64,000 nucleotides of DNA from a bacterium (GTDB taxonomy: Bacteria; Sysuimicrobiota; Sysuimicrobiia; Sysuimicrobiales; Kaftiobacteriaceae). The notes beneath the pieces were generated by a model, which made no database searches, was not told the DNA's origin, and worked only from the letters and a program-made list of their open reading frames with translations. Shown piece after piece: positions 12,180 through 60,931 of this stretch (positions are counted from its first letter, which is position 1; each line of letters opens with the position of its first letter). A program made the position numbers and the translations under genes. The stretch covers positions 12,288 through 76,287 of the forward strand of contig DATDQT010000083.1 in the NCBI GenBank assembly GCA_035292085.1, written 5' to 3'.

Positions 12180-13325
12180 GTGGATTTCCAGCTGACCGAC
12201 GAGCACAAACTCGTCCAATCGACCGTCCGCGAGTTCGCCGACAAGGAGATCCGTCCCCGTGCCGCCGAGCTCGATCGGACCGCCGCGTACCCCGCCGACA
12301 TCATCGCCAGAGCCGCAGCCCTCGGGTTGATGGGCATGACCGTGCCCGAGGAGTACGGCGGGGCCGGGATGGGCCTCGTGGCCTACGTGGTCGCGCAGGA
12401 AGAGCTCGCGCGGGCCTCGGCGGGCGTCCAGACCATCATCACCGTCAACAACTCGCTCGTCTGCGATCCACTCGTCCGGTTCGGCTCCGGGGCGCAGAAG
12501 CGCCGGTACCTCCCCTCGCTGTGTTCCGGCGCGTCGCTGGGCTGTTACTGTCTCACCGAGCCGGCATCCGGGTCGGATGCGATGTCCCTGCAGACCGCCG
12601 CCCGGCGGGACGGGGCGGCGTGGATGCTCTCGGGCACCAAGAGCTTCGTCACCAACGGCGCCGAGGCCGACGTCTGCATCGTGTACGCCCGGACCGGCCC
12701 CGAGCCGGGGGCGCGCGGGCTGTCCGCGTTCATCGTGGAGAAGTCCCTGCCCGGCGTCAGGGTGGGGAAGCTTGAGAAGAAACTCGGCATCAAGTGCTCG
12801 TCAACCACCGAGATCGTGTTCGAGGACGTGCCGGTCCCGGACGCCAACCTGCTGGGCGAGCCGGGGATGGGCGGGCGGATTGCGCTGGGCACGCTGGATG
12901 TCGGCCGCATCGGCATCGCGGCCCAGGCGCTGGGGATCGCCCGGGCGGCGCTGGAAGACGCGCTGGCGTACGCGGCCTCACGGAGACAGTTCGGCCGTGC
13001 GATCGCCGAGTTCCAAGCGATTCAGTGGATGCTGTCGGACATGGCGACGCGCCTCGACGCCGCGCGGCTGCTCACCTACCGGGCGGCCTACCTCCGGCAG
13101 TCCGGCGCGCGCTGCACGAAGGAAGCGGCAATGGCCAAACTCTTCGCATCGGAAACTGCGATGTGGGCGGCGCACAAGGCCGTGCAGATTTACGGCGGCT
13201 ATGGGTTTATCCAGGACTATCCCGTGGAACGGTACTTCCGGGACGCCAAGATTACTGAGATCTACGAGGGGACGTCGGAGATCCAACGCGTCGTCATTGC
13301 GAGGAACGTACTCGAGGCTACTTGA
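12180..13325 (+). CDS. Acyl-CoA dehydrogenase
   Basis: Trimmed from ORF 11661..13325 to GTG 12180 (VDFQLTDEHKLVQSTVREFADKEI...). Contains CLTEPASGSDA and, at the C-terminus, QIYGGYGFIQDYPVERYFRDAKITEIYEGTSEIQ; 381 aa. Confidence 0.85.
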   Translation: MDFQLTDEHKLVQSTVREFADKEIRPRAAELDRTAAYPADIIARAAALGLMGMTVPEEYGGAGMGLVAYVVAQEELARASAGVQTIITVNNSLVCDPLVRFGSGAQKRRYLPSLCSGASLGCYCLTEPASGSDAMSLQTAARRDGAAWMLSGTKSFVTNGAEADVCIVYARTGPEPGARGLSAFIVEKSLPGVRVGKLEKKLGIKCSSTTEIVFEDVPVPDANLLGEPGMGGRIALGTLDVGRIGIAAQALGIARAALEDALAYAASRRQFGRAIAEFQAIQWMLSDMATRLDAARLLTYRAAYLRQSGARCTKEAAMAKLFASETAMWAAHKAVQIYGGYGFIQDYPVERYFRDAKITEIYEGTSEIQRVVIARNVLEAT

Positions 13326-32425: not shown

Positions 32426-32502
32426 CGGGCCGTAGCGCAGCATGGTAGCGCGCCTGAATGGGGTTCAGGAGGTCCCCGGTTCAAGTCCGGGCGGCCCGAC
32501 CA
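32426..32502 (+). tRNA. tRNA-Pro (anticodon GGG)
   Basis: Manual cloverleaf: acceptor CGGGCCG/CGGCCCG, D-stem GCGC/GCGC, anticodon stem CCUGA/UCAGG with loop AUGGGGU (GGG at positions 34-36), T-arm CCCGG-UUCAAGU-CCGGG, discriminator A and encoded CCA. Confidence 0.85.
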
Positions 32503-45903: not shown

Positions 45904-46152
45904 TTAGGGTTTTACGATGACGCAGGTCGCGACTTCGACCACTCCGTCGATCCTGCGCACGGCGGCCGTGAGGCTGGGAAAGCCCCGGGTTCCCTCGAGC
46001 TCGGCGATCGCGACGACATCATAGTCGCCCATGGTCACGTGGGCATCGACCACGCCGTCCAGCTGCCGGATCGCCCGCGCCACCGCGGCCGGAGTGCTGC
46101 GGTTGATCGAGACCAGTACGTATGCCACCTCGGTCACGCCCCCAACTTTCAA
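45904..46152 (-). CDS. Lrp/AsnC ligand-binding-domain-only small protein
   Basis: 82 aa. AYVLVSIN...GVVDAHVTMGDYDVVAIAE...IDGVVEVATCVIV matches the AsnC_trans_reg (RAM) domain pattern. The start (TTG 46152 or a downstream GTG) is uncertain. Confidence 0.6.
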   Translation of the reverse strand: MKVGGVTEVAYVLVSINRSTPAAVARAIRQLDGVVDAHVTMGDYDVVAIAELEGTRGFPSLTAAVRRIDGVVEVATCVIVKP

Positions 46153-46206
46153 CTTCCAGTTGGGTCTGTCCTGTTGCAGTTACCCACCACCTAGCGCTGG
46201 GGTGGA

Positions 46207-46236
46207 TTGACAGCCGGCGCGGGCGGGCTTTACCCT
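46207..46236 (+). promoter_or_regulatory. Putative promoter of the FMN-riboswitch/ribU transcript (TTGACA-18 nt-TACCCT)
   Basis: Consensus -35 TTGACA at 46207-46212 and TAnnnT-type -10 TACCCT at 46231-46236, about 25 nt upstream of riboswitch stem P1. Confidence 0.35.
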
Positions 46237-46259
46237 TACGAGGAGCACTACCGAAGCCC

Positions 46260-46474
46260 GCAGCGCTCTGGGGCAGGGTGAGTCCTAACCGCGGTTAGGG
46301 CAATTCCCGATCGGCGGTGACAGCCCGTGACGGCTGCCAGGCGGCGGCCGGTGGCCCGGTGAAATTCCGGGGTCGACGGTAAGCCCCGTTCCAAGTCGGC
46401 AGGTACGTTGTGCAGTTTCGGAGCATGTGGCAGCCGACTTGGAACGGGGTAAGTCCGTATGAGGTGAACGCTGC
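46260..46474 (+). promoter_or_regulatory. FMN riboswitch (RFN element) aptamer with two atypical hairpin insertions
   Basis: P1 is GCAGCG(46260-65)/CGCUGC(46469-74). Core strands: GGGGCAGGGUGA..AAUUCCCGAUCGGCGGUGACAGCCCGUGAC..CCGGUGAAAUUCCGGGGUCGACGGUAAG..UAAGUCCGUAUGAGGUGAAC. These match the remembered B. subtilis ribD RFN consensus (GGGGCAGGGUGAAAUUCCCGACCGGCGGU...AGCCCGUGAC...GCCGACAGUGAAAGUCUGGAUGGGAGAAG). A RibU-like gene follows. Confidence 0.75.
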
Positions 46475-46501
46475 GAGATGCCGGCGCCCCAGCGCCCCGA
46501 G

Positions 46502-46531
46502 GACGCCCGACGTTGGGCGTCTTTTGCTTTT
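46502..46531 (+). terminator. Intrinsic terminator of the FMN riboswitch expression platform
   Basis: GACGCCC (46502-08) pairs with GGGCGTC (46515-21), followed by TTTTGCTTTT, upstream of the ribU RBS AGGAGGGG. Confidence 0.7.
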
Positions 46532-46565
46532 GGGCGACCGGAGGTCGTGCGTAGGAGGGGTATTC

Positions 46566-47090
46566 ATGAAGACCCGAGATCTTACCGTCACCGCGCTGCT
46601 CATCGCGTTGACCACCGTCGCCACGATGGTGGTGCGCATCCCCGTGCCGGCGACTCAGGGCTATATCAACCTGGGGGACTCACTGGTTTACATCGCCGCG
46701 CTGTTGTTCGGCCCACTCACAGGCCTCATCGCCGGAGGGGTGGGATCGGCGCTCGCGGACCTGCTCGGCGGCTACACGCAGTTCGCACCATATACCCTCG
46801 TGATCAAGGGTCTGGAAGGGCTGTTGGTGGGTCTGGTCGCATGGCGGCTGACACGGGGACCGACGGCAACGGCCGGTGGAGTGGCCGCCGCGGTCCTGGC
46901 CATCCTCATCGGCGGCGCGGTCATGGTCGGAGGCTACTTCGTGGCGGAAGCGTTCATCATGGGGTTAGGCACCTCGGCGGCCGGCGCTGAAGTCCCGGGA
47001 AACATCTTCCAGGTCGCGGGCGGGCTGGTGGTCGCCATCCCCGCGGCGCTCCTGCTCCGCGGTCTCGTCCCGTCCCGGCGCGCGCCGTAG
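46566..47090 (+). CDS. ribU: ECF-transporter S component, riboflavin transporter RibU-like
   Basis: Trimmed from ORF 46410..47090 to ATG 46566. 174 aa, six hydrophobic segments, LTVTALLIALTTVATMVVRIPVP...GYINLGDSLVYIAALLFGP. The assignment is supported by the upstream FMN riboswitch. Confidence 0.7.
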   Translation: MKTRDLTVTALLIALTTVATMVVRIPVPATQGYINLGDSLVYIAALLFGPLTGLIAGGVGSALADLLGGYTQFAPYTLVIKGLEGLLVGLVAWRLTRGPTATAGGVAAAVLAILIGGAVMVGGYFVAEAFIMGLGTSAAGAEVPGNIFQVAGGLVVAIPAALLLRGLVPSRRAP

Positions 47091-48104
47091 GTGGCCGTGC
47101 TCCGCACCGGCAAGGTGCCGCCGGATCTTCTCCGCGCGCTGATCTTTCCGTACCTGGGACGGCGGGCCGATGTCCTCGTTCATGCAGGCATCGGACAAGA
47201 CAGCGCGGTCCTCGACTTCGGCGAGTGGGCCGCGGTCTTGACCTGCGATCCGATTACCGCAGCCCGGCGTCACCTGGGCCGGCTGGCCGTTCACGTCACC
47301 TGCAACGATCTCGTGACCACCGGCGCAGAACCGGTGGGCCTGCTCCTGACGCTGCTGCTGAGGGAAGACACGCCCGACGGTGAACTGGCCGCCATCATGC
47401 GCGAGGCCGGCGAGACCGCCCTCGCGCTGGGTGTCGAGATCATCGGGGGGCACACGGAAGTGACGCCTGGGATCGACCGCACGATCGCCATGGTAGCCGG
47501 CATCGGCCGCGTACGCAAAGCCGACCTCATCACGCCCCGCGGCGCGAGGGCCGGGGATGCTGTCCTCATCACAAAAGGGGTCGCGGTGGAAGGCACGGCC
47601 ATCCTCGCCGACGACCTGGCCGGCGTCCTGCGCGGGCGCGTCGACGGCGCAGTCCTCGACCGCGCCCGGACACTGATCGACCGGATCAGCGTGGTCCCCG
47701 ACGGCTTGATCGCATCACGCAACGGCGCCACCGCCATGCACGACATCACGGAGGGCGGAGTCCTCGCCGGTGCGTGGGAACTGGCTGAGGCGGCTGGCGC
47801 CGGCATCGAGATCTGGGCGGACCGCATCCCGGTATTCCCGGAAACCTCGGCGATCTGCGCGGTGCTCGACGTCAACCCGCTGGCCCTCATCGGCAGCGGG
47901 GCCATGCTGGTCGCCACGCGCACCCCGCGGCGGACCGTGGAAGCGCTGGAAGGCAACGGTATCCCCGCCGCCCACATCGGGATGCTCACCGAGGCCGCAC
48001 GTTCCATCCATACGCCCGCGGGCGTCCGGGAGCTTGTGCCGCCGGACCGCGATGAACTCTGGCGAATTCTCGAATTGACACAATCGACTCAACGTACGCA
48101 ATAA
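47091..48104 (+). CDS. AIR-synthase-related (PurM/HypE/ThiL-fold) protein of unknown specificity
   Basis: 337 aa. GTG 47091 directly follows the ribU stop. GIGQDSAVLDFGEWAAVLTCDPIT and EIIGGHTEVTPG are typical of the PurM-like N and C domains. Confidence 0.65.
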   Translation: MAVLRTGKVPPDLLRALIFPYLGRRADVLVHAGIGQDSAVLDFGEWAAVLTCDPITAARRHLGRLAVHVTCNDLVTTGAEPVGLLLTLLLREDTPDGELAAIMREAGETALALGVEIIGGHTEVTPGIDRTIAMVAGIGRVRKADLITPRGARAGDAVLITKGVAVEGTAILADDLAGVLRGRVDGAVLDRARTLIDRISVVPDGLIASRNGATAMHDITEGGVLAGAWELAEAAGAGIEIWADRIPVFPETSAICAVLDVNPLALIGSGAMLVATRTPRRTVEALEGNGIPAAHIGMLTEAARSIHTPAGVRELVPPDRDELWRILELTQSTQRTQ

Positions 48105-48177
48105 CTTGCTTCGGCCCGACAGAGGAGCGGCAGGTCATCGAGTCGATTGTGTGCCTGGTGTCAATCGTGTACATTGA

Positions 48178-48276
48178 TAGGTAGAGGGGAGCTCGGGCCA
48201 CCGGGCTGAGAGTGCACCTTATCGCGGTGCAGACCCTTACGACCCGATCCAGGTAATGCTGGCGTGGGGACATCGG
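48178..48276 (+). promoter_or_regulatory. TPP (THI-box) riboswitch
   Basis: GGGGAGCUCGGGCCACCGGGCUGAGAGUGCACC...GCAGACCCUUACGACCCGAUCCAGGUAAUGCUGGCGUGGGGA carries the conserved CUGAGA, ACCC and GAUC-AGG-UAAUGC-GGCG blocks. A GC-rich hairpin at about 48291-48316 plus UUCAUCAUU follows. The thiT-thiN genes lie downstream. Confidence 0.8.
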
Positions 48277-48335
48277 ATACGCAGCGAGGCGCCGCACCCC
48301 GGATTCGGGTGGCGGCGTTCATCATTGGTGGTGAG

Positions 48336-60304: not shown

Positions 60305-60436
60305 GTGCCGGACCAACCCGGCTGTCTCATGCCGCGGCCAGCACAGTTGCCTGCCGGGTTGGTACGGCATGAGTCCCGTCCCAACCCGGCTGCCCTCTGT
60401 GCGCGACCGGATGCCTGACTGCCGGGTTGGAACAGG
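60301..60436 (+). repeat. Two tandem 68-nt direct repeats, each with an internal inverted repeat (CCAACCCGGCTG / CTGCCGGGTTGG)
   Basis: Unit 1 is 60301-60368 and unit 2 is 60369-60436. Both start with ATGAGT and share ...CCAACCCGGCTG...TGCCTG..GCCGGGTTGG.AC.... The arms of unit 1 can form a ~20-bp stem with two mismatches. Confidence 0.8.
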
Positions 60437-60931
60437 ATGAGGCAGCTCTGGGCCCCCTGGCGTCTCGCCTACATTCAGCAGGACCATCCTGAAGGCTGCA
60501 TCTTCTGCGCGGCGGCGGCTGGCGGGGACGACCGGGCAAATCTCGTAGTCTACCGCCGCCGTCACGCGTTCGTCATGCTGAACCTGTATCCGTACAACTC
60601 AGGACATGTCATGGTCGTCCCGTCCCGGCACGTGGCCCGGCCGGCCGACCTCGACGACGCCGAGCTCCTCGAGGTGATGCAGACCACGACGCTAAGCCTG
60701 CGGACCCTGGAACACGTCTTTCATCCCGAAGGAGCCAATGTCGGAATGAACCTGGGACGCGCCGCCGGCGCCGGGATCGACGAACACCTGCACGTCCATG
60801 TCGTGCCGCGCTGGGTGGGTGACACGAACTTCATGCCGGTGCTCGGGGATGTGAAAGTGATTCCGGAACACTTGGACGCGACGTACGACCGGCTCCTTGG
60901 GGCATTTCGAGACCTGGCGGCCGCCGGATGA
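60437..60931 (+). CDS. HIT-family (histidine triad) nucleotide hydrolase/transferase
   Basis: 164 aa. Contains LYPYNSGHVMVVP and the histidine triad DEHLHVHVVPR. Confidence 0.8.
   Translation: MRQLWAPWRLAYIQQDHPEGCIFCAAAAGGDDRANLVVYRRRHAFVMLNLYPYNSGHVMVVPSRHVARPADLDDAELLEVMQTTTLSLRTLEHVFHPEGANVGMNLGRAAGAGIDEHLHVHVVPRWVGDTNFMPVLGDVKVIPEHLDATYDRLLGAFRDLAAAG

Follow-up and report, generated by a model that had tools for sequence, protein, structure and literature searches.

A probably mobile hairpin in loop L6 of an FMN riboswitch in the order Sysuimicrobiales

The window analysed here is a 64,000-nucleotide (nt) stretch of DNA, positions 12,288 to 76,287 of contig DATDQT010000083.1 (C83) in assembly GCA_035292085.1 (G000), a metagenome-assembled genome (MAG) of 1.97 Mb that is 87% complete and belongs to the family Kaftiobacteriaceae of the order Sysuimicrobiales. 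At 46260..46474 on the plus strand it carries the aptamer of a flavin mononucleotide (FMN) riboswitch, running from the 5' strand of helix P1 (GCAGCG) to its 3' strand (CGCUGC). This is followed on the same strand by the intrinsic terminator of the expression platform (46499..46531, with the stem at 46499-46524 and a T tract to 46531) and, starting 35 nt past the terminator, by a ribU-like gene (46566..47090, +) encoding the S component of an energy-coupling factor (ECF)-type riboflavin transporter (PF07155, E = 5.8e-39). Additional helices interrupt two loops of the aptamer, L2 and L6. The element is a genuine FMN riboswitch ahead of a riboflavin-transporter gene. Comparison with related genomes suggests that its L2 helix is inherited and that its L6 hairpin is a copy of a mobile repeat resembling the miniature inverted-repeat transposable elements (MITEs).

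All core strands of the RFN element were found in order, namely J1/2 GGGGCAGGG, L2 UGA..AAUU, J2/3-P3 CCCGAUCGGCGGU, AGCCCG, P5/L5 CCGGUGAAAUUCCGG, J5/6-P6 CGACGGUA and AGUCCG-AUG. The six helices P1 to P6 are present, with P1 closing the structure through GCAGCG (46260-46265) paired with CGCTGC (46469-46474), as read from the sequence of 46100-46700. P2 (46276..46308, +; GGG/CCC) is capped by the L2 T-loop UGA^AAUU, which is split by helix P2a (46282-46301, +), a 20-nt block of sequence GTCCTAACCGCGGTTAGGGC lying between GGGTGA and AATTCCC and forming 8 bp with a 4-nt CGCG loop. According to the Rfam alignment and strand parsing, the region at 46312..46352 (+) holds P3 (GCGG/CCGU), with a minimal 7-nt L3 (UGACAGC) and no P3a, followed by P4 as a variable hairpin. 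The same alignment places P5 and a canonical L5 T-loop, CCCGG UGAAAUU CCGGG, at 46355..46371 (+). P6 (46377..46457, +; CGG/CCG) carries the second interruption, in which GACGGTAAG leads into a 66-nt hairpin (46384..46449, +) and TAAGTCCGTATG follows it. The arms of this hairpin, CCCCGTTCCAAGTCGGC (46384-46400) and GCCGACTTGGAACGGGG (46433-46449), are paired over all 17 bp and enclose a 32-nt loop, and the hairpin is flanked by two plus-strand copies of TAAG (46380..46383 and 46450..46453), a candidate target-site duplication. The core is the same at 59 of 59 anchor positions as that of the riboswitches termed class U in a second genus of the family (g6). These features lie far above chance level, and the architecture is seen again in a second riboswitch of the genome and in relatives. 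With the known FMN riboswitch or RFN element (RF00050; the Fusobacterium nucleatum impX aptamer, PDB 3F2Q; the Bacillus subtilis ribD leader) the window riboswitch shares the junction and loop sequences, the six helices, the L2 and L5 T-loops, the L6 sequence U-A-(N)-A-G-U, the position before a transporter gene and the terminator platform. It differs from the standard form in the 20-nt L2 helix, the 70 extra nt in L6, the minimal L3 without P3a and a score below the Rfam threshold.

At the RF00050 gathering score of 66.2 bits no FMN-riboswitch match was obtained in the window, where the only Rfam matches at gathering threshold were a thiamine pyrophosphate (TPP) riboswitch and a tRNA. With permissive filters a local match was detected at 46298-46388 (model positions 17-121, 43.3 bits, E = 1.1e-8), and this alignment ends exactly where the L6 hairpin starts. 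Orthologues that naturally lack the hairpin served as a deletion control for Rfam scoring. A congeneric orthologue of this kind is aligned over the full model (positions 1-138, 61.6 bits), and scores without the hairpin were 60-69 bits for class-U and about 100 bits for class-D riboswitches. The sub-threshold score of the window riboswitch is thus attributable to the 70-nt insert in L6. The only other RF00050 match in the genome lies at C98:8220-8354 on the minus strand, ahead of another ECF S-component gene. This second FMN riboswitch (L001, C98:8168-8354, minus strand) scores 57.3 bits with its 3' end misaligned into a hairpin arm, so that neither FMN riboswitch of the genome passes the gathering threshold. 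The identity of the window riboswitch is established by the core strands and P1, the local match, the full-model alignment of the orthologue, the PF07155 gene and the terminator. The original prediction was right in these respects, and its L2 block, its L6 hairpin with perfect 17-bp arms and its UAAG repeat were confirmed base for base. The covariance model also places the two segments in L2 and L6, and not in the variable P3 region, with the L2 helix treated as an insert state within L2.

To place the L2 helix, the RF00050 scan was extended to 41 genomes of the same order and all matches were parsed on the conserved strands, which gave 56 distinct riboswitches; six spurious opposite-strand 'riboswitches' produced by the fuzzy-regex parsing were excluded from the final counts. 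A helix is present in L2 of 52 of the 56, with 10-109 extra nt between GGGU-GA and AA-UUCCC. These 52 inserts comprise 50 distinct sequences, and 43 of them have at least four consecutive base pairs at their base, compared with 7.5 on average, and 16 at most, in 500 shuffles. T-loops cap P2, P3 and P5 in the FMN aptamer, and the site at which L2 may be interrupted by an optional helix was already described in 2007 (Barrick and Breaker, 2007; PMC2258182). The window helix lies at that interruption point. As a covarying helix is found there in 52 of 56 relatives, the L2 block appears to be an ordinary, inherited optional helix of a known kind, with no insertion event in the window leader. Like the variable insertions in the same study, both window inserts are stable stem-loops that spare the core. 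The text of that study, however, names the loops of P2, P3 and P5 with L6 absent, whereas the window has an L6 helix, and this helix, unlike the insertions described there, has a traceable source in a family of mobile repeats.

Helices also occur in other loops of the FMN riboswitches of this order. The L5 T-loops of two relatives hold helices of 70 nt (L035, G010:C19) and 18 nt (L055, G035:C3), and L2, L3, L5 and L6 can therefore all carry extra helices here. It should also be noted that six loci (L042, L068, L069, L072, L074 and L075) have L2 or P4 inserts of 70-120 nt in which runs of short units are mirrored, as in GTCGTTGATCGTTCGTCG, and that these are a repeat family distinct from that of the L6 hairpin.

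The 17-mer arm of the L6 hairpin was found again elsewhere in the genome, and a relaxed search gave 19 copies of 62-68 nt each. A covariance model built from 26 copies was then used across the order; as its matches are counted on both strands, the number of copies is about half the number of matches. There were 92 matches in the window genome (about 46 copies), 4-37 in its congeners G001-G003 and 46-59 in three genomes of genus g6, which corresponds to 2-30 copies per genome in these relatives from two genera. A genome of a third genus (G005) has two matches, representing a single copy, and the remaining 33 genomes of the order gave none. The search for further arm copies, by which the original prediction proposed to probe its MITE idea, thus returned a repeat family. 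Among the 26 copies 97.1% of stem cells are paired and 10 of the 17 pairs have changed on both sides, a level of pairing reached in 0 of 500 shuffles. The stems hold five wobble cells against 14 non-pairs, so that nothing points to selection at the level of RNA rather than of a DNA palindrome.

Of the 19 copies inspected, 13 have exact direct repeats at their ends, 4 nt long (5 nt in two cases), compared with a chance expectation of about 0.07. These repeats read CGGG, CAGG, CTAG, CTGA, CTGG, CGAA, TGAGG, CACG, TGAG (twice), CATCG and TAAG (twice). The count comes from the inspected set because automatic calling from nhmmer hits finds too few, since mismatches in the outer arms and palindromic duplications such as CTAG shift the inferred ends. 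Copies are extragenic and often adjoin the ends of reading frames. One tandem pair in the window (60306..60437, comprising 60306-60369 and 60374-60437) reads TGAG-copy-TGAG-copy-TGAG and is placed right at the TGA stop codon that ends the upstream gene. When written on a single strand, many of the targets conform to CTNA or CTNG. With G+C at about 70%, tetranucleotides of this type are found in the genome chiefly at stop codons and in those riboswitch loops that are conserved and rich in A/U. The element, in which 17-bp inverted arms enclose an unrelated loop of about 32 nt and which duplicates 4 bp of its target site, would on this basis be directed to A/T-containing tetranucleotides such as CTNA, and such a preference may be what makes L6, with its UAAG, a hot spot.

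The terminal inverted repeats, the duplications of fixed length and the many dispersed, lineage-restricted copies are those of a MITE, and the L6 block, as far as sequence comparison can tell, appears to belong to a MITE-like family of mobile hairpin repeats confined to this lineage. Bacterial MITEs such as the Correia elements of Neisseria, or IS5-derived elements with 4-bp duplications of the YTAR type, are likewise short, non-coding, multicopy and lineage-restricted, with terminal inverted repeats, target-site duplications and insertion at gene ends and in leaders. The family differs from them in its length of only 62-68 nt, its unrelated interiors, its covarying arms and the autonomous partner, which was not found.

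The repeat might instead be of the kind formed by repetitive extragenic palindromic (REP) sequences and their paired form, the REPINs, mobilised by a Y1 transposase (RAYT/IS200-like) and not by a DDE-type enzyme. Each of the six family-carrying genomes has Y1 transposase genes (PF01797), the window genome four of them. The extragenic position at gene ends, and stems that are better conserved than their free loops, are also shared with REP/REPIN-RAYT systems. Transposition of the HUH/Y1 type, however, leaves no target duplication, whereas variable 4-bp direct repeats flank the copies of the hairpin family. Moreover, the Y1 genes differ from those of REP/REPIN-RAYT systems in that no family copy was found in the flanks of any of the four. 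A REPIN-like origin is accordingly judged quite unlikely. One Y1 (IS200/RAYT-like) gene of the genome (C122:4424-4759) follows a perfect palindrome (C122:4285-4345) with arms of 23 bp, GCAGGAGGGGACAGTCCCCGTAC-TTG-GTACGGGGACTGTCCCCTCCTGC, which shares with the hairpin family the CCCCGTAC at which that family starts. An attC-like site was also considered for the L6 hairpin and was rejected, its GTT and AAC motifs standing in reversed order and its arms being perfect.

Among the 56 riboswitches of the order, the same subfamily of the element occupies the identical L6 position in eight, two in the window genome and six in genus g6. It was also found in seven metagenome contigs from g6-like populations. 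The L6-borne copies have arms CCCCGTTCCAAGTCGGC and flanks GGTAAG ... TAAGTCC. In the three congeners of the window genome, riboswitches of both classes read GGT-ANA-GTCC, the canonical form, and lack the L6 element. Comparison of related leaders, as the original prediction had suggested, thus separates its two blocks, the L2 helix being common and the L6 element being absent from congeners and present in g6. The second riboswitch of the window genome has identical L6 arms and flanks, GGTAAG followed by CCCCGTTCCAAGTCGGC ... GCCGACTTGGAACGGGG and TAAGTCCGGATG, with a different loop. Its L2, GGGTGA-GGTCGTAAGACC-AATTCCC, holds a 12-nt GNRA-capped helix at the same spot as P2a but of different sequence.

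Further copies of the element, or hairpins related to it, lie in or close to FMN riboswitches in g6. In the ribD riboswitch L033 (G013:C16) a related 66-nt hairpin, CCCCGAACGAAGTCGCC ... GGCGACTTCGTTCGGGG, is located in L3 at the usual exit of P3a, and in this lineage the one repeat family may therefore have supplied FMN aptamers with helices in L3 as well as in L2 and L6. Two copies with the duplication CTAA lie about 130-150 nt upstream of the class-D2 riboswitches of G013 and G016 (L078, 5050-5112; L085, 1501-1563), by which exact-arm copies are seen to cluster near FMN leaders in this genus. In the class-D1 (ribD) leader of G016 the flanks read GGTATAG-element-TAAGTCC. When the element and one TAAG are subtracted, exactly the GGTATAGTCC of the orthologue is obtained. 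The loop of this copy differs by 1 nt from that of the L6 copy in the paralogous riboswitch of the same genome. This fits a copy that arrived by conversion from the paralogue, through the conserved aptamer flanks, and not by fresh transposition. Once in L6, the element may generally spread between paralogous riboswitches by gene conversion of this type.

The position of the hairpin within L6 was compared with the known structure of the loop. In F. nucleatum L6 is U89-A90-N91-A92-G93-U94, with A90 intercalating between A21 and A22 of the L2 T-loop and G93 pairing with C30 (PMC3764141). Among the relatives examined here N91 is the only L6 position that varies (A, C, U or G). The window loop reads U-A-[AG-hairpin-UA]-A-G-U, and hence the insert replaces N91; all five conserved residues, including those that make the contacts, are retained on either side of it. 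In riboswitches of the G008 type the linker base after the hairpin varies (UUAGU) and AGU is constant. This layout mirrors that of L3 in the other, pseudo-symmetric half of the aptamer, U-A-[P3a]-A-G-C. With the hairpin in the place of N91, A90 and the G93-C30 pair would stay where they are, and the L6 helix would project outward as P3a does from L3.

Helices at this position were found to be widespread. One genome per species from 185,000 species was scanned with the pattern GGTG-N5-CC-N4-CCGAC-N-GT, 10-40 or 41-71 nt, AGTC-N-GGATG. In other phyla at least 237 loci have L6 inserts of 10-71 nt, which fold as hairpins, and the 5' half of an FMN aptamer was verified upstream in at least 221 (221 of 237 among the matches listed). 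The taxa include Micromonospora, Actinoplanes, Salinispora, Microbacterium, Leucobacter, Plantibacter, Variovorax, many Clostridia, bacteria of the candidate phyla radiation (CPR) and Omnitrophota. Seven L6-extended loci (in Variovorax, Leucobacter, Micromonospora, Salinispora and others) gave full-length RF00050 alignments of 72.9-97.9 bits, and in the four alignments examined the model puts inserts of 29-57 nt inside L6. These riboswitches share with that of the window a hairpin between the P6 5'-GU and AGUC-3' in an otherwise canonical aptamer. Their helices differ in being shorter (10-60 nt), lineage-specific and not members of the hairpin family, some lie 5' and not 3' of the unpaired purine, and unlike the window riboswitch most of these loci pass the Rfam threshold. 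No paper describing helices in L6 of FMN riboswitches was found, and a literature search on MITEs within riboswitch aptamers gave nothing relevant.

The same scan bears on the proposal, made in the original prediction, that L2 and L6 were extended jointly as a co-adapted variant of their tertiary contact. Both loops are extended in both riboswitches of the window genome, and members of the one element family occupy L2 as well as L6 in class-U riboswitches of the G008 and G016 types, as such a variant would have it. The distribution already contradicts it, however: L2 helices occur in 52 of the 56 riboswitches of the order and the L6 element in only eight, and the two L2 helices of the window genome are unrelated in both sequence and length (20 and 12 nt). 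L2 is canonical in 140 of 215 L6-extended riboswitches of other taxa among the matches listed, which shows extension of L6 to be uncoupled from that of L2. A coordinated extension is thus highly improbable.

The class-U expression platform is kept in twelve leaders across the family, whether the hairpin is present or absent, in the order terminator GACGCCCG-loop-CGGGCGUC, U tract, ribosome-binding site and start codon. Directly behind the window ribU-like gene lies a second operon gene (47091..48104, +) for a protein related to aminoimidazole ribonucleotide (AIR) synthase and similar to ThiL, HypE and SelD (PF00586, PF02769). The arrangement of this AIRS-like gene behind the riboswitch and the S-component gene is syntenic across the family. 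In genus g6 the L6 insertion is common to the orthologous leaders of three species. Between two such leaders (G008 and G013) the core anchors are identical at 55 of 59 positions, in comparison with 50 of 62 in P3/P4, 103 of 130 in the downstream leader (150 nt) and 21 of 32 in the hairpin loop; the core has thus been held while its surroundings drifted after the insertion. Since core, terminator and operon have been conserved after the insertion, the riboswitch is probably still functional as a transcription-terminating switch, and as such would control the riboflavin-transporter operon made up of the ECF S component and the AIRS-like gene.

It could be argued that the insertion destroyed FMN sensing, as the original prediction suggested when it took the second block for a MITE-like insertion. 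L2 and L6 would then fail to dock, the transporter operon would be constitutive, and the aptamer would be intact only through the recency of the event. L6 does make two conserved tertiary contacts, that of A90 with L2 and the G93-C30 pair (PMC3764141), neither riboswitch of this genome reaches the gathering threshold, and as the congeners lack the insert it is possibly young here. However, all five conserved L6 residues are kept around the insert, and in g6 the insertion is older than the split of three species, since when the core has stayed 93-98% identical with P3/P4 and the leader at about 80%. The terminator and operon are conserved as well, and helices occupy the same L6 position in more than 220 species, including in riboswitches that score above threshold. 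Loss of ligand sensing is for these reasons considered unlikely. The mobile-element part of that suggestion has fared better, given the repetition of the arm in the genome, the paired arms and the duplications at 13 of 19 copies.

All NCBIfam matches to the AIRS-like protein (47091-48104) were below cut-off; it could be a flavin-related kinase or another ATP-dependent enzyme. It is 74-78% identical to its counterparts in congeners. The window ribU-like protein is 48-50% identical to those of three congeners, compared with 63-76% to those of other genera of the family (loci compared: L052, L060, L061, L072, L046 and L064), which suggests gene replacement or recombination at the ribU-like locus. 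The TPP riboswitch (48175-48287, 61.6 bits, above its threshold) lies 70 nt past the AIRS-like gene, and the tRNA gene (32426-32499) is located farther upstream in the window.

Taken as a whole, the results make it quite probable that this is a working FMN riboswitch in which an inherited L2 helix is accompanied by a MITE-like hairpin, accommodated at a permissive site in L6 and spread from there by conversion. Several observations weigh against this explanation. Concerning transposition, loops cannot be aligned between most copies of the family, where the copies of a MITE would share an interior. No PF01609 (DDE) transposase was found in the six family-carrying genomes, and when arm-like motifs spaced by 0.3-4 kb were sought as the ends of an autonomous element, no pairs beyond those of chance were obtained; this absence is weak evidence because the MAGs are 83-95% complete. 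Family members that lie in L2 of the class-U riboswitch in G008 and G016 have no target duplication. A strict duplication model would further give a pre-insertion L6 of UAAGU (5 nt), where all relatives have the 6-nt UANAGU. As to regulation, FMN binding is predicted, and retention of the FMN response is deduced from conservation. The minimum free energy (MFE) folds of the leader contain no convincing antiterminator; by eye, GGCGCCC (46485-46491) could pair instead with the terminator's 3' arm.

The last of these observations concerns the arms themselves. In the L6-borne copies they are identical at 34 of 34 positions across genera, riboswitch classes and metagenome contigs, whereas the loops agree at 16-22 of about 31 positions and the aptamer core at 49 to 59 of 59. 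With near-neutral identity in the flanks at about 80%, 34 unchanged positions have by our own calculation a P of about 5e-4 per pair. Such invariance is therefore unlikely under neutrality, and simple tolerance of a selfish insert predicts otherwise. One explanation is homogenisation by conversion or repeated replacement; another is a sequence-specific function, in which case the hairpin would have been co-opted and its arms would be a selected module, such as a site for RNase III or another binding protein, or a folding aid. That other copies of the family vary in their arms, with compensation, agrees with co-option. Against it, conversion between paralogues, demonstrated once, could homogenise the arms, the stems show no G-U excess over A-C mismatches (5 wobble cells to 14 non-pairs) and hence no signal of selection on RNA, and the congeners and most of the family do without the hairpin. 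The sample is also small, at about ten independent copies from two genera. Co-option is on balance regarded as rather unlikely. If the invariant arms were functional, this would be a case of a mobile element domesticated inside a riboswitch. A wider proposal, in which small mobile hairpins are a general source of the variable-insertion helices of riboswitches and the L6 copy is a domesticated, sequence-constrained module, is doubtful at present.

Under the preferred explanation of a tolerated, MITE-like insertion, the new findings are modest but real. Insertion into L6, the loop that receives the L2 T-loop, is widespread, and a helix is accepted at the one variable nucleotide of this loop in more than 220 species, some of them in cultured taxa (Micromonospora, Microbacterium, Leucobacter and Variovorax). 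The variable insertions of riboswitch aptamers would also gain a concrete origin, in that the L6 helix is traced to a transposon-like hairpin, which may have reached a permissive site by filtering before it was copied among paralogues. Finally, the insertion creates a blind spot in annotation: with both of its FMN riboswitches below threshold, the riboflavin regulon of this uncultured soil lineage would stay unannotated in standard pipelines.

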